From Pseudomonadota bacterium (GTDB lineage Bacteria; UBA10199; 2-02-FULL-44-16; JAAZCA01): a stretch of 23,200 nt of DNA. A model generated the notes under the pieces. It was not told the origin of the DNA and made no database searches. It saw only the letters and a program-made list of their open reading frames with translations. The stretch is taken from contig JAZDOG010000092.1 of assembly GCA_043798915.1 (NCBI GenBank), positions 1 to 23,200 of the forward strand, read 5' to 3'. Each line of letters opens with the position of its first letter. Within the stretch, counting starts at the first letter, position 1. Below, piece by piece: positions 8,138-15,497 of the stretch. A program made the position numbers and the translations under genes.

Positions 8138-8902
8138 TCACCACTGGAAGAACACCCCCACCCTCGGGCCATGGAGTTTCTCGTCGCCCACGAGAAGCGC
8201 CCGATAGCCGGCGCGAACGCCGAAGAGCTTGTACTTGAATGATAAACCCGCCCCAAGGTCATATACGGTATTCCCCCTGAGTGTCGTGAAATACGGCAGG
8301 ACATCGAACACGAAGTTCCTGTTGAAGAAGATATAGAATGGCAATCCTATGTCCATGCCCGTGCGGCGCTGTCCCCCCTTAATCACCCTGGCGCCAAGCG
8401 CCAGATTCGTCCCGAAATGCCGCGTGAAGATCGACCGCAGGAGGCCGTGCACGGTCCACATATCAAGCGAATTGTTCGGGCTCTTCTCAAAAATGCGCGA
8501 ATACTCGCCGTCGACGCCGAGCACCAGGTACCCCGCCTCCGCCTTGACGGAAAAGCTACTGAGGCCGCCAACCAGGTACTGATATGACGGCTCGATGCGG
8601 ATCGTGGGCAGGGCCGGACTCCACTCCTTTTTGAGATCCTTGTAGAGGCCTTGGAAACCCTCCATGCCTGTCTGCATAAAGCCCATGAGGAGAAACTGCA
8701 TGAACATCTCGATGGCGCCCTGCATGGCTATATCCCCTGCGCTCACCCCGCTTGTATCTTGCGGGGTCTCAGCCGCCGGCTTCCCGATCTCCTCTTCGAA
8801 GGATGACAGTTTCCCACTCTTGTCTTCAGCGGAGGCAGCCGTCGCCAATGCCGTTGAGGAGAGAAAAAACACAGCCATGAGAAGCGCCAATGACCTCTTC
8901 AT
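8138..8902 (-). CDS. Hypothetical exported protein, probable outer-membrane beta-barrel
   Basis: ATG 8902 with GGGAG RBS; signal peptide MKRSLALLMAVFFLSSTALATAASA; alternating amphipathic strands in the C-terminal two-thirds; ends in GVFFQW. Confidence 0.65.
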   Translation of the reverse strand: MKRSLALLMAVFFLSSTALATAASAEDKSGKLSSFEEEIGKPAAETPQDTSGVSAGDIAMQGAIEMFMQFLLMGFMQTGMEGFQGLYKDLKKEWSPALPTIRIEPSYQYLVGGLSSFSVKAEAGYLVLGVDGEYSRIFEKSPNNSLDMWTVHGLLRSIFTRHFGTNLALGARVIKGGQRRTGMDIGLPFYIFFNRNFVFDVLPYFTTLRGNTVYDLGAGLSFKYKLFGVRAGYRALLVGDEKLHGPRVGVFFQW

Positions 8903-8909
8903 ATGCTCC

Positions 8910-10127
8910 CTATCCGAGCACGATGGCTCCGGAGACCAGCACCTTTGACACGAAGTTTGTCCCGTACCTGTAGAGGGGAAAATACTCGTCCGGGGCATCG
9001 AGGATTATGAGATCGGCGCGATTGCCAACAGCTACCCTGCCGCAGTCCGTGAGCCCCAGAACCGACGCGGCATTTTGGGTGACAGCGACGAGCGCCTCAT
9101 CGCATGTCATCCCCATCTGCGCGACCGCGATCGTCGCCGCCATCCACAGGTCGAGCGACGGGTTCGTGCCGGGGTTGTAGTCCGTGGCAATTGCAACCTT
9201 GAGGCCCAGATCGATCATCTTCCTCACATCCGGGTAGCGGCCCCGACCGGCGAAGAAACTGGCGCCTGGAAGGACGACGGCTCCGACCCCTGCCCTGGCC
9301 ATCGCGCGCATCCCTTTTTCCGAGGTATGGTCGAGGTGATCGGCAGAAAGGGCGCCAAGCTCCGCCGCGAGTTCCCCTCCCCCGACATCGCTGAACTGAT
9401 CGACGTGAAGGTGCATTCCCAGCCCCATCGCCCTGGCGGCCGCGCCTATTTTGCGCGCCTCGTCGGCCGTGTATGCCCCATCCTCCACAAAGACATCGCA
9501 TGCGCTTATGACCCCGGATTTTTTGGCCGCCGGGAGCATATCGTCGAGGATATGCTGCAGATATTCGCCACGGCGCCCCTTGAACTCCCGAGGCACGACG
9601 TGCGCACCGAGAAACGTTCCGACGATCCTCTGCGGCCCCCTGCCAGCAAGCGCACGGATGGCCTCCGTCATCTTCGCCTCGGCGGTTCTGTCCAAGCCAT
9701 ATCCCGTCTTTATCTCGATCGCCGTGGTGCCATGCGAGAGGGCCTCCATGGCGCGCTGCTCCGCAGAGGCAAAAAGCTCCTTAAGTTTCGCCTTGCGCGT
9801 GGCCTCGACCGTCGACATGATCCCGCCGCCTGAGGCCGCTATCTCCTGATAGCTCTTTCCCTGCGAGCGCAGGTTGAATTCACTTTGTCTGAAGCCGGCA
9901 TGGACAAGATGCGTATGGCAGTCGATGAGGCCCGGCATGACAACGCCGCCGTCCGCATCGACGACGGCTTCGCGGTCCGCCGCATCAGGCAATTTCTTGC
10001 GAGGCCCTGCCCATGCGATTTTTCCGCTTCGGACTCGCACCGCGGCATCCTCGATGACGCCGAGAATCCCTTCGCGGCCTGCGCCCGGTTCCAGCGTCAC
10101 CAACCGGCCTATGTTTTTTATCAGCAT
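8910..10127 (-). CDS. hutI: Imidazolonepropionase
   Basis: [38 protein letters not shown] and ATDYNPG motifs; follows hutU. Start set to MLIKNIG. Confidence 0.95.
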
Positions 10128-11776
10128 GTTATTCCCGGAATCTTCACGCCGCACCGTTTCGCACATTCTATTGCATCTTCATAACCCGCGTCCGCGTGGC
10201 GCAGGATGCCCATCGCCGGGTCGGAGGTGAGGACGCGCCCGATCCTGTGGGCCGCCGCATCCGTCCCGTCGGCGACGATCACCTGCCCAGCGTGGAGCGA
10301 ATACCCGATCCCCACGCCGCCGCCATTGTGGAAGGAGACCCACGACGCGCCGTTGACCGCATTGATGAGCGCATTGAGGATCGGCCAATCCGCGACGGCG
10401 TCGGAGCCGTCTTTCATCGCTTCGGTCTCGCGGTACGGGCTCGCGACAGAGCCGCAATCGAGATGGTCGCGCCCTATGACGATCGGCGCCTTGACCTTTC
10501 CCTTTTTGACGAGATCGTTGAAGGCAAGGCCGGCCTTCGCGCGCTCGCCGTATCCCAGCCAGCAGATGCGCGCTGGCAGGCCCTGAAACGAAACCCGCTT
10601 CGCCGCCATGTCGATCCACCGCGACAAGGCCGCATTTTCGGGAAAGAGATCCTTGATTGCGCGGTCGGTCGCATGAATATCGGCAGGGTCGCCAGAGAGC
10701 GCCACCCATCGAAACGGCCCCTTCCCTTCGCAGAAGAGCGGACGGATATACGCGGGGACGAAACCCGGGAAGGCAAACGCGTCGGCCACGCCCGCATGCT
10801 CTTTCGCCTGCGCGCGGATGTTGTTTCCATAGTCAAACGTCGGCACGCCGCTCGAGTGAAAAGAGAGCATGGCCCGGACCTGCTCACCCATTGCGCGCCA
10901 CGACTCTTTCCTGTAGCGATCCGGATCTTCGCTGCGAAGCCTTAAGGCATCGGCATATGAGATGCCGTTCGGGACGTAGCCATTCAGCACATCGTGCGCC
11001 GATGTCTGGTCGGTCACAAAATCAGGCCGGACGCCGCGCCTCACGAGTTCAGGATATATGTCCGCGGCGTTCGCGCAGAGGCCGATCGACACTACTTCCT
11101 TATTTTTCCGGGCCTTTTCGAGTCTCTTTAAAACTTCATCTAAAGTATTAACTTTTTCATCTAAATATCTAGTTTTTAATCTTTTTTCTATTCTATCACT
11201 ATCTACTTCAATTCCTAAAAAAGAGACGCCCGCCATCGTCGCCGCAAGCGGCTGAGCGCCGCCCATCCCTCCGAGTCCGCCCGACAGGATCCAGCGGCCG
11301 CCCATCTCTCCGCCATAGTGTTTCCTGCCGGCTGCGGCAAAGGTCTCGTATGTCCCCTGCAGGATCCCCTGCGTTCCAATGTATATCCATGATCCGGCGG
11401 TCATCTGGCCGTACATCATGAGCCCTTTTCGCTCGAGCTCATGGAAGTGGTCCCAGTTCGACCAGTTGCCCACAAGGTTCGAGTTGGCGATGATGACGCG
11501 CGGCGCATCGGGATGACTGCCGAGTATGCCAACCGGTTTACCGGACTGGACGAGGAGCGTCTCATCCTCTTCGAGATTCTTGAGGGATTCTATGATCCGG
11601 CGATAGGAGGGCCAGTCGCGCGCCGCCTTCCCCCGACCGCCATAGACGACCAGATCGCCGGGGCGCTCGGCCACCTCGGGATCGAGGTTGTTCATGAGCA
11701 TCCGCATGGCCGCCTCCTGCACCCACCCCTTGCAGGTAATTTCAGAACCCCGCGGCGCCCTTATGATCTCTGACAT
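10121..11776 (-). CDS. hutU: Urocanate hydratase
   Basis: [32 protein letters not shown] and [19 protein letters not shown] motifs. Confidence 0.98.
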
Positions 11777-11791
11777 TGACAGTTGAACCCC

Positions 11792-12313
11792 TTATTGCTT
11801 CCCCAAAATGAAATTGCTTACCTCTGCCCTCACCCCTTCGTCATCCCAATCGACGGAGTTGTTTATGCGCTTCGCTATGATGCCGCTCTTGTCTATGAAG
11901 AACGTCTCGGGGACACCGTAGCTCTGGTAGGTATCGGCGACCCGGCCGTCGAGATCGGTCAGAACCGGGAAGGGAGGTTCGGTCGCCCTGAGGAAGGAAC
12001 GAAGATCGCCCATGCCGTTCGGACCGTCCTCCGAGATGGCCACGACCGCCAGCCCCTCGGGCTCGAAGGCTCTGGCCAGCCGGGCGAGCGATGGAAACTC
12101 GCTCACACATGCCCCGCAGAACGTGGCCCAGAAATGGAGGATCACAGGACGGCCCTTGAACTCTGCCAGAGAAACTACCGGGCCCGCAACTGAGGAGAGC
12201 TCGACCGGCGGCGCTGCCTCCCCGACCTTCGGCCGATTCAGATACTGAAGCGCCGACATCGCCACGATGGCGATGCCGGCGATCAGGATAAAAATCCAGA
12301 AGCGCTTCATCAT
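11792..12313 (-). CDS. TlpA/ResA-family membrane-anchored thiol-disulfide oxidoreductase
   Basis: N-terminal TM anchor; LHFWATFCGACVSEFP active site; GVPETFFID cis-Pro motif. Confidence 0.9.
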   Translation of the reverse strand: MMKRFWIFILIAGIAIVAMSALQYLNRPKVGEAAPPVELSSVAGPVVSLAEFKGRPVILHFWATFCGACVSEFPSLARLARAFEPEGLAVVAISEDGPNGMGDLRSFLRATEPPFPVLTDLDGRVADTYQSYGVPETFFIDKSGIIAKRINNSVDWDDEGVRAEVSNFILGKQ

Positions 12314-12325
12314 TTTTGGACCTGA

Positions 12326-12892
12326 TTAATCGCCCGACTGAGGAGCCTTGCGCGCCGAGGCGGTCTTTCTCACAGCTGGCTTGCCCCCCTTGGCGGAGTG
12401 CTTTGCAGTCGCCTTATTGCTTTCGGCCGTGTGCGCAGCGGCCTTTTTTCCCGCCTTCTGAGCCCTCTTCTTCTCGACCCTGGCCTTCTTTTTGGCCTCT
12501 GAGTGCTCGCCGCCCTCGGCATGCGCGTGTTTTCTCTCACCGTCGATATACTCGATGGCGGCCATCGGAGCTGAATCGCCATGCCGCCAGCCAAGCTTCA
12601 GTATCCTGGTGTAGCCGCCGTTGCGATCGGCAAAGCGCTTTGCAAGCTCCGCAAAGAGCTTGTGCACGGCCTTCTTGTTGTGGATGATGGCAACCGCGCG
12701 GCGCTGTGCGTGGAGCGTCTTGCGCTTGCCCAAAGTCACGAGCCTGTCGGCGACCCTGCGGAGCTCCCTGGCCTTCGGCAGCGTCGTCTCGATGCGGTCG
12801 TTGAGGATCAGCGACGTCGCCATGTTGGCGAACATCGCCTTGCGGTGCGCTGACGTGCGGCCTAATTTTTTTCCATCGACATGATGTCTCAT
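12326..12892 (-). CDS. rplQ: 50S ribosomal protein L17 with Lys/Ala-rich C-terminal extension
   Basis: [17 protein letters not shown] and [10 protein letters not shown] motifs; follows rpoA. Confidence 0.97.
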
Positions 12893-12902
12893 TGAAGATC
12901 TC

Positions 12903-13913
<1,011 letters not shown>

Positions 13914-13994
13914 ATCGAACCTCCTCGCGCCACCACTCCCTGCTCTCGTTATCCTCAGGGATCCTCGGCGCTTGATTAATCATGCATGACGGAA

Positions 13995-14621
13995 TTATTT
14001 CGAATACAATTCAACAATGAGCTGTTCTCGTATCGGTATCGTGAGCTGCTCGCGCGACGGGAATGCCATCACCTTGGCGGAGAAAGTATTCTTCTCGAGC
14101 ATCAGCCATTCCGGAATCCCGCGGCGCTCCACAGACTCCATCGCCTCCGCGATGGCGGGCAGCTGCCGGCTCTTTTCCACGACCGTGACCGTGTCGCCCT
14201 GGCGGACGAGATATGACGGTATGTTAACACGGCGGCCGTTGACCTGGAAATGGCTGTGTTTCACAAGCTGCCTCGCCTGGCTGCGCGAGCGCGCGAAACC
14301 CATCCTGTAGACCATATTGTCCATCCTTCGCTCCAGAAGGAGGATGAGATTGTCGCCGGTCACTCCCTTCATCTGGTCGGCCATCTGGAAGCAGCGCCTG
14401 AACTGGCGCTCAAGCAGGCCGTACATCGCCTTGGCACGCTGCTTTTCGCGCAGCTGCATGCCGTACTCGGAGAACTTGCGCCTCCCCTGGCCGTGCTGGC
14501 CGGGGGCATAGGAGCGCCTCTCGAATGCGCACTTGTCGGTGTAGCAGCGATCGCCCTTCAGAAAGAGCTTCATGCCTTCACGGCGGCACTGCCTGCAGAC
14601 TGACTCTATATACCTTGCCAT
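13995..14621 (-). CDS. rpsD: 30S ribosomal protein S4
   Basis: [33 protein letters not shown] and LIVELYSK motifs. Confidence 0.98.
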
Positions 14622-14645
14622 GGTACAACCTCCTATGAAATCAGA

Positions 14646-15089
14646 TCAAACTCTGCGCTTCTTCGGCGGCCTGCAGCCGTTGTGCGGTATCGGCGTTATG
14701 TCCCTGATCGAGGTAACCCTCACGCCCGTCTTCTGGAGAGCGCGCAGGGCGGACTCCCTGCCCGACCCGGGGCCGTTTACCAGCACCGCTACGCTGCGGA
14801 GGCCGTGGTCCATCGCTTTTCTGATGGCACCCTCGGCGGCCAGCTGCGCGGCAAAGGGCGTGCTCTTGCGCGACCCCTTGAAGCCGCACATCCCGGCCGA
14901 AGACCACGAGATGACATTGCCGGCCGGATCGGTGACGGATATGATCGTGTTGTTGAACGTCGCCAATATATGAACGACCCCGACGGCGACGTTCTTCTTC
15001 ACCTTCTTCTTGCCCTTCTTCGGCGCTACCTTTTTGACTTCCTTTGTTTCCTGCGCCTCTTTTTTTACTTCCTTGACCTCAGTCGACAT
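14646..15089 (-). CDS. rpsK: 30S ribosomal protein S11
   Basis: [20 protein letters not shown] and [15 protein letters not shown] motifs. Confidence 0.98.
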
Positions 15090-15110
15090 TTATTACCTCC
15101 CAATTCATGA

Positions 15111-15497
15111 TCACTTGGTAACCGTCGCGATCTTCTTGCCGGCCACAGCTATCCTCTTGCGGCCCTTGGCTGTGCGCGCGTTCGTATGCGTCCTCTGGCC
15201 CCTGCAAGGCAGCCTGCGGATATGGCGAAGTCCGCGATAGGCGCCAAGATCCTTGAGACGCTTGATGTTTCCCTGTATCTCCCTGCGAAGATCTCCCTCC
15301 ACCTTGTAGCCGGCGTCGAGCACCTCGCGGATCTTCGCGACGTCTCCCTCTGAGAGATCATCGGCGCGAAGGGCTTCATCGATCCCCGCGCTCTTGAGAA
15401 TCCGTTTCGAGGTTGTGTGCCCTATCCCGTAAACATACGTGAGGGCTACAGCGATCCTCTTCTTGCCCGGGATATCTACACCTGCGATGCGTGGCAT
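15111..15497 (-). CDS. rpsM: 30S ribosomal protein S13
   Basis: [18 protein letters not shown] and [14 protein letters not shown] motifs. Confidence 0.98.

Follow-up and report, generated by a model that had tools for sequence, protein, structure and literature searches.

An AT-rich codon island inside hutU, apparently inherited across a bacterial order and most extreme in one genome

What has written, and what maintains, a stretch of 96 bases at minimal G+C inside a catabolic gene whose other codons mostly end in G or C? The question is raised by the urocanate hydratase gene hutU (10121..11776, minus strand; 551 codons for 551 residues; TIGR01228, E 8.5e-283) on a 23,200-nucleotide stretch of a Pseudomonadota contig, here called the window. 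Its initial annotation proposed that a focal C>T/G>A mutator had saturated the patch, and named as alternatives an AT-rich element hidden in coding sequence and a short recombination tract from a low-GC donor. We have followed the patch through the source genome, through hutU of related and unrelated bacteria and through searches for embedded signals, and we weigh below what may hold it in place.

A minimal-GC patch in a G/C-ending gene

The source genome (2.34 Mb in 105 contigs, 57.7% GC, 97% complete, 3.3% estimated contamination) encodes a HutU with 60-65% identity to solved urocanases (1UWK/1UWL and others). Upstream of the gene lie an AhpC/TSA-type redoxin (11792-12313) and rplQ (12326-12892), together spanning 11792..12892 on the minus strand, and its end is overlapped by a gene for a hutI-like amidohydrolase (8910..10166, minus strand); the arrangement rplQ-(redoxin)-hutU-hutI is found again in other members of the taxonomic order. 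In one member of the class hutU is split, with an assembly gap at contig ends; an insertion as the cause of this split was rejected, the break being formed by the contig ends themselves.

Codons 185-216 (11129..11224, minus strand) form a run of 32 consecutive codons that all end in A or T and are each, in 32 of 32 cases, a minimal-GC choice for the residue, with the translation as first given; the initial hand count of 20 G+C in 96 bases proves exact, and the impression that the rest of hutU mostly ends in G or C is borne out by a third-position G+C content (GC3) of 0.76 outside the island, against 0.71 for the whole gene. All five leucines are written TTA and all four arginines AGA, in a genome where TTA makes up 1.5% of leucine and AGA 6% of arginine codons (usage from 2000 coding-like ORFs). 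Under this genome usage, and given the residues, the probability that all 32 codons end in A/T is 10^-18.2 and that of the exact patch codons 10^-29.1; mean log2 RSCU is -0.74 in the patch and 0.24 over hutU, and first and second codon positions are likewise AT-shifted. The third-position map reproduces both the abrupt edge at 11224 and the fading of the opposite side, which extends across codons 217-232. As had been supposed, the patch is in frame and the protein constrained; the island starts 555 nt into hutU and lies within a domain, directly after the NAD-binding glycine motif GGxGGMGGAQ.

This is the strongest tract of its kind in the 2.34-Mb genome. The longest run of A/T-ending codons in the 2000 coding-like ORFs is that of hutU, at 32, with a runner-up of 17; one 32-codon window of hutU has no G/C-ending codon at all (0), the lowest count elsewhere being 5; and three or fewer G/C-ending codons in an internal 24-codon window, among 430,348 such windows, occur in hutU and mutS only. 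The genome-wide scan for similar patches that the initial annotation had suggested therefore returned a single further case, mutS, and the remaining low-GC 96-base windows of the genome are either intergenic or placed inside ORFs that are low in GC throughout. Eight consecutive A/T-ending codons near the end of hutU (codons 531-538; 10163..10186, minus strand), which cover the hutI start codon at 10166 and the bases immediately before it, are an ordinary embedded translation-start region, separate from the island. Gene starts and embedded start regions tend to be A/T-rich or to use rare codons, which accounts for this short run and may contribute to the mutS tract at codons 33-64. The hutU island, unlike such regions, begins 555 nt into its gene, and in a codon alignment read by eye neither a start codon after the SD-like AAGGAA nor a Shine-Dalgarno pairing is conserved after it.

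Inheritance across the order and constraint on silent sites

For comparison we collected the hutU genes of all genomes of the same order in which one occurs (12 genes, 13 with that of the source; 75-84% protein identity), together with two outgroups: 16 hutU from other families of the class and 75 usable hutU from other phyla, the latter being 80 loci minus 3 partial genes and 2 copies of order genes. In all 13 order genes, codons 195-232 (11081..11194, minus strand) form an AT-shifted tract, which coincides with the maximum of synonymous codon identity in the gene. GC3 in these codons lies below that of the remainder in each of the 13 (differences of -0.14 to -0.50), falling for example from 0.79 to 0.37, from 0.82 to 0.45, from 0.62 to 0.24 and from 0.40 to 0.18, and from 0.76 to 0.26 in the source genome. 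Without the source genome, the deepest GC3 dip of hutU is found at residues ~196-225 (z -3.6), and in the closest relative A/T endings occupy 19 of 21 choosable codons between 195 and 216, against a GC3 of 0.79 in the remainder of its gene. Over the patch columns the 75 genes from other phyla stay within -0.15 to +0.16 of their gene means and none carries the tract; in the 16 genes from other families of the class the difference is -0.19 to +0.12 and the tract is weak or absent; and acidobacterial hutU with similar residues at the patch have a GC3 of 0.7-0.8 there. Judged from these alignments, the AT-rich codon island is inherited within the order and is not private to the source genome, and its retention at the same codons by related bacteria points to a lasting force on nominally silent sites, not to a recent burst of mutation.

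The silent sites themselves are unusually alike. Where order members share a residue, they also share the codon in 0.40 of cases gene-wide, but in 0.66-0.67 at the maximum, which is reached by windows beginning at codons 200-213 whether or not the source genome is included. We set this against a composition model in which a GC penalty, fitted per window, determines each sequence's codon choice, using one gene per genus (nine genes, none of them selected by motif): an identity excess of 0.19-0.22 remains at codons 205-234 (z 3.7-4.6; 9 genera), an excess that could partly reflect uneven AT pressure within the fitted window, and ten control genes of the class show no such excess under the same model. 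In each of the 12 pairs compared, the island shows a lower level of synonymous difference than the remainder of hutU (0.00-0.46 vs. 0.09-0.73), and amino-acid differences are higher there in 11 of the 12, by about twofold. Two assemblies of one species differ at 43 positions of hutU, with 0 differences in codons 185-232 (144 bases; ~4.5 expected). All of these z-scores and counts overstate their support, since the order relatives share ancestry and are not independent; ancestral states were taken by majority and not from a tree. Elsewhere in hutU, synonymous sites are about saturated among order members.

What is retained can be narrowed further. In G/C-rich members the tract belongs to the rarest-codon windows of hutU (e.g., rank 3-22 of ~510 in nine genes), whereas in five A/T-richer members its codons are as common as the average or more so (ranks 102-417 of ~500); as the tract codons are rare in the G/C-rich genomes only, it is A/T content and partly sequence that is kept, and not rarity. 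The best conserved 18 nucleotides (codons 212-217; 11126..11143, minus strand) have the consensus TTAGATGAWGCTTTAAAG, in which the source genome carries a T in place of a C, giving Val215, and a second TTAGAT at codons 205-206 (11159..11164, minus strand) lies 21 nt upstream of the first. Leu205 is TTA or TTG in 11 of the 11 order genes with Leu at this position, GCT is favoured over GCA at codon 215 by 10 to 1, and Lys217 is AAG in seven of the eight genes with Lys. At the four-fold sites of codons 209, 215 and 228, T further exceeds A by 24 to 3; we draw nothing from this excess, as it recurs neither at codon 222 nor in mutS.

Embedded signals and a second island in mutS

In light of these comparisons we favour, with a probability of roughly 0.55, an inherited island that is held AT-rich by nucleotide-level selection for a piece of mRNA or DNA that is rich in A/T and free of structure, with a putative function. 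Among the possibilities raised by the initial annotation, its AT-rich element hidden in coding sequence is the one that fits best. Searches for a sigma-70 promoter in the patch and for the H-NS and Lsr2 families found neither. More specifically, a sigma-70-like promoter search over 10000-12400 returned none, and an aligned scan finds a TAGAAT-like, -10-type hexamer in 7 of 13 genes with no conserved -35. A search for binding proteins that covered the H-NS (PF00816), Lsr2 (PF11774) and Hfq families found none of them in the 97%-complete genome, and an H-NS/Lsr2-type loading site, which calls for an encoded protein of that kind, was rejected on this result. An Rfam scan of positions 9000-13000 at E up to 1 gave 0 matches. 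Conserved RNA structure was not found by RNAalifold on the tract from 13 genes (-0.94 kcal/mol, 5 pairs, one of them with a double change), and in 7 of the 13 the mRNA is at its least structured in the tract. No alternative reading frame is open in all genes: stops occur everywhere except in one frame, which is closed in 5 of the 13.

Two known kinds of synonymous-site constraint offer partial parallels. With the FRESCo method, functional elements embedded in coding sequence are reportedly traced as regions of excess synonymous constraint, and viral regions of this type usually turn out to be RNA structures, overlapping ORFs, or packaging or regulatory signals. The hutU island resembles them in its local drop of synonymous change inside an ORF whose protein is not especially conserved at that place, and departs from the viral cases in that no structure, ORF, promoter or RNA family was found in it. 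In Streptomyces, the bldA tRNA-Leu(UAA) controls genes with TTA codons; by analogy, the source genome may be likened to this system in that TTA is rare in a G/C-rich genome (1.5% of Leu), TTA codons are conserved at fixed gene positions and a single tRNA-Leu(UAA) gene is present. Unlike in bldA-type control, the island spans all codon families and not Leu alone, and TTA is far commoner in the source genome than in Streptomyces.

The second island lies at codons 33-64 of mutS, where 26 of 32 codons end in A/T in a gene with a GC3 of 0.79, and the genome has no third internal tract of the kind. In 13 relatives from two families of the order these codons form the deepest GC3 dip of the 870-codon gene (z -4.3), and codon identity peaks there as well; the island is not seen in the third sampled family of the order, nor in 17 genes from other families of the class. 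Like the hutU island, it is strongest in the source genome. Both islands further contain, in frame, TTAGAT-N4-(C/T)TTTAA, coding for Leu-Asp-x-x-Leu. By our estimate such a coincidence would have odds of about 1 in 100 to 1 in 1000, for a bipartite motif that was defined after it had been seen. The 16-nt motif occurs at 19 places against 4 for the control, 6 of them in hutU and 5 in mutS; in the source genome alone it occurs at 3 places, against 0-1 for four shuffled controls, and the third of these is in another frame of an unrelated gene. The conserved hutU 18-mer, with up to two mismatches, is found at 21 places in 22 genomes against 9 for its reversed control, and 10 of the 21 are hutU. 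As repeated genomic motifs, both the 18-mer and the 16-nt motif were rejected.

Competing accounts and the case for selection

A real if rather small possibility is that the island has no function and records a long-standing local mutation process biased towards AT, order-wide and strongest in the source genome, with selection on the protein as its filter. The DNA at this place would be prone to deamination or would mutate towards A/T by another route, which amounts to the mutator of the initial annotation recast as old and inherited. The changes specific to the source genome bear most directly on it. We counted these at sites where at least five of seven family members agree, 73 in codons 185-217 and 1095 in the rest of hutU, and the source genome differs at 13 (18%) of the former and 114 (10%) of the latter. 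The 13 comprise 8 GC>AT transitions, 1 GC>AT transversion, 3 AT>GC changes and 1 neutral one; GC>AT transitions make up 8 of 13 changes in the patch and 32 of 114 elsewhere, and GC>AT exceeds AT>GC by 9 to 3 in the patch, compared with 51 to 42 in the rest. As the changes are mostly GC>AT, the island has in this lineage moved further towards A/T, and upstream to codon 185, a reading of the alignment that is based on small numbers. The tabulation against relatives called for at the outset hence yields the anticipated lean to GC>AT, together with four transversions among the 13 resolved changes, and the coding strand carries C>T as well as G>A changes.

Residues have been affected as well. Codon 215 (11132..11134, minus strand) is GTT for Val, by C>T from GCT, at a position that is Ala in 110 of 111 other HutU sequences, and codon 184 (11225..11227, minus strand), just outside the abrupt edge, is GTC for Val, again by C>T, where 100 of the 111 have Ala. 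The replacements that the initial annotation had proposed thus partly hold: A>V is confirmed at 215 and at 184, the latter outside the patch, and may have occurred at 209; the case for D>N at 210 is ambiguous, and E>K is not seen. Its observation that transitions alone suffice to reach every codon but ATA is right by the genetic code, but the codons that relatives actually use (CTC/CTG at Leu187, CGC at 193) require transversions too.

Several of these features are what a biased mutation process would produce: the elevated rate of change with its 8 GC>AT transitions, the C>T loss of an Ala kept in 110 of 111 other sequences, the AT shift of first and second codon positions, and the fact that both islands are strongest in the same genome. 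The roughly twofold divergence of residues in the island fits it too, and a saturating bias would likewise leave little synonymous and much residue change, so that fast residues with A/T-fixed silent sites fit both composition selection and saturating mutation bias. Against it stand the occurrence of C>T and G>A on one strand alongside transversions, the retention of G-ending codons at fixed positions (e.g., AAG at Lys217) and of GCT over GCA at codon 215, and the species-level pair without a single island difference. Only two islands in 2.3 Mb would, moreover, still require a site-specific cause, and a lone C5 methyltransferase would act on a short motif and not on 96 contiguous bases; one gene for such an enzyme is present in the source genome, and its presence says nothing either way since 9 of 14 control genomes have one too.

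The more specific proposal of a focal C>T/G>A mutator in the source genome keeps its lean towards GC>AT and its two conserved Ala-to-Val changes, but it loses most of the tract, which is inherited in 13 of 13 order genes, and it is at odds with the presence of both strands' change types and of transversions and with the unchanged species pair. Deaminase clusters, whether kataegis-like or from DddA/SsdA-type toxin mutagenesis, are strand-coordinated and recent, and hit non-synonymous sites alike. The hutU patch shares with them its shortness and its enrichment in GC>AT transitions, and differs in being inherited across the order, strand-mixed and filtered to synonymous sites. With both C>T and G>A on the same strand, and transversions besides, there is no strand-coordinated deaminase signature, and clustered hypermutation of the deaminase type was rejected on this mixture (4 of 13 being transversions) and on the order-wide distribution, which is not that of a private event.

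It also seems unlikely that the island is a position-conserved cluster of rare codons, slowing ribosomes after the NAD-binding glycine motif for cotranslational folding or cofactor loading. Conserved rare-codon clusters are reported often to lie within domains, and it is their rarity that is conserved, codon identity following host usage (Chaney et al. 2017, PLoS Comput Biol, PMC5438181). By that description the hutU island is similar in using host-rare codons beyond chance at the same place in homologues (13 of 13 order genes) and, like many reported clusters, within a domain, here after GGxGGMGGAQ, and its rank of 3-22 of ~510 windows by codon rarity in nine G/C-rich genes agrees with it. 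Where that study defines the class by conserved rarity (PMC5438181), the island instead keeps its codon identity and its A/T content, its codons are not rare in the five A/T-richer members (ranks 102-417 of ~500), and it is confined to one order; with the feature of conserved rarity looked for and not found, we file it as a variant and not as a member of this class. Other phyla fold the same protein from hutU that lack the tract, and the mutS island, at codons 33-64, would be translated before any domain emerges.

Decidedly speculative, and improbable in our estimate, is the idea that a putative lineage-specific factor recognises TTAGAT-N4-CTTTAA in both islands, with its sites kept at synonymous positions across genera, and either co-regulates a catabolic gene and the mismatch-repair gene from within their coding sequences or exposes the DNA to local cytosine deamination. 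Were such a DNA-exposing factor to exist, this would amount to site-targeted bacterial mutagenesis, in which AT islands are written around the factor's own binding sites.

There is little to recommend a short recombination tract from a very low-GC hutU, even as an explanation of at least the private codons 185-194 and the abrupt edge at 11224. Besides that edge, it can draw on a metagenomic relative that matches 27 of 32 patch residues by hand count at an overall identity of 77%, and on the conserved 18-mer at the other edge, which could serve as microhomology. The low-GC donor suggested by the initial annotation nevertheless fails to appear among the sampled genomes that the comparison covered: of 111 other hutU, the one most similar to the patch in nucleotides comes from the closest relative, with an identity of 0.77 (0.76 in the flanks), none exceeds 0.77, and low-GC members of the order reach only 0.69-0.71. 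A metagenome scan with a pattern fitting the patch returned seven loci, none of them close (three of the seven were left out of the constraint statistics because they had been chosen by the motif itself), and the GC3 of any donor would have to be below ~0.1.

Among sequencing runs containing the stretch, no RNA run is listed and one public DNA run, probably that of the source sample, contains 23% of sampled words. Its single 255-nt contig matches 11203-11457 without a difference; it thus crosses the abrupt edge and covers 22 nt of the patch, which lends this junction weak support, and the fading edge lies outside it. An assembly or binning artefact in the form of a chimeric contig is hardly credible, for all that the assembly has 105 contigs and an estimated 3.3% contamination and that the sole independent contig has a depth of 3.2 and ends 22 nt inside the patch, given that frame, residues and nearest-relative signal run on continuously through the patch, that the island occupies the same codons in independently assembled relatives, one of which comes in 3 contigs, and that the public-run contig reproduces the abrupt edge without a mismatch.

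Returning to nucleotide-level selection for an AT-rich stretch, we infer both the role of the island and that selection rather than mutation bias is what holds it; on our own assumption of a neutral equilibrium with at least 0.2 G/C third positions, the probability of 0 in 32 is below 1e-3. We propose that the ancestor of the order already wrote hutU codons ~195-232 A/T-rich, and that its descendants would have kept this tract as the rest of hutU rose, in several lineages, to 70-80% G/C third positions. The force would act on nucleotides and not on the protein, with residues changing about twice as fast and silent sites less, staying A/T, and the tract would be a candidate cis element affecting translation or mRNA fate. 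In the source genome, the island would then have been lengthened upstream to codon 185 and saturated by GC>AT changes, at the loss of two conserved Ala residues.

For annotators, the island is a warning that a sharp intragenic patch of low GC need not mean foreign DNA or an assembly error. With its mutS counterpart, a dozen genera and a broad span of GC content, it also provides a natural test case in which a hidden RNA or DNA signal, translation control and site-specific mutation are the candidates. The usual view of bacterial genes is that their silent sites drift along with the composition of the genome; in hutU, some 100 bases appear to have resisted the shift towards G/C since before the families of the order split, and in the source genome to have reversed it, even at the cost of a near-invariant Ala.

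Further AT-rich codon tracts in the source genome

A second AT-rich codon island was located in mutS, where it spans codons 33-64 (contig C28 of the source genome, positions 29162-29257, equivalent to compared locus L121, positions 663-758). Of its 32 codons, 26 end in A or T, in a gene with a G/C share at third codon positions (GC3) of 0.79, and the island is conserved within two families of the order. The in-frame motif TTAGAT-N4-CTTTAA is common to the mutS island and the hutU island (codons 185-216; window 11129-11224, minus strand). Separately, an Ala/Pro-rich linker within a 798-codon open reading frame (contig C83, positions 27868-27963) is encoded almost entirely by GCT, GCA and CCT, with only 4/24 codons ending in G or C as compared to a GC3 of 0.78 for its gene. 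The tRNA complement of the same genome, as predicted by ARAGORN, includes tRNA-Sec and features single-copy anticodons throughout, with the exception of Met-CAT, Thr-TGT and Val-TAC.

Variation among related hutU genes

Two hutU genes, one from the order (locus L093, the same gene as that of L086) and the other from another family of the class (locus L110), carry an in-frame insertion of ~25-30 residues in the same loop, at HutU residue ~155; both inserts resemble palindromic repeats that have been translated. In addition, sequencing run X2 yielded a 1472-nt contig, less than 90% identical to the window, which matches it in the flanks only (10701-10772 and 11394-11456) and features in its middle 636 differing letters where the window has 621. 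This contig is probably the hutU of a related organism from the same study.

The hutU-hutI junction and its genomic context

At the 3' end of hutU, a run of eight successive A/T-ending codons (window 10163-10186) both covers and directly precedes the hutI start codon, the two reading frames overlapping by 46 nt as called; this run looks like an embedded translation-start region. Downstream of hutI lies a 286-codon open reading frame (window 8138-8998, minus strand) with no Pfam match, which could encode the pathway's final enzyme, otherwise missing, or be unrelated. Directly upstream of hutU-hutI is the S13-S11-S4-rpoA-rplQ ribosomal cluster (window 11792-15497; loci L005, L011 and L012), with a small AhpC/TSA redoxin gene intervening in some cases and absent in others. 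This arrangement, shared by members of two of the order's families, places hutU in a neighborhood that is unusual for a catabolic gene.
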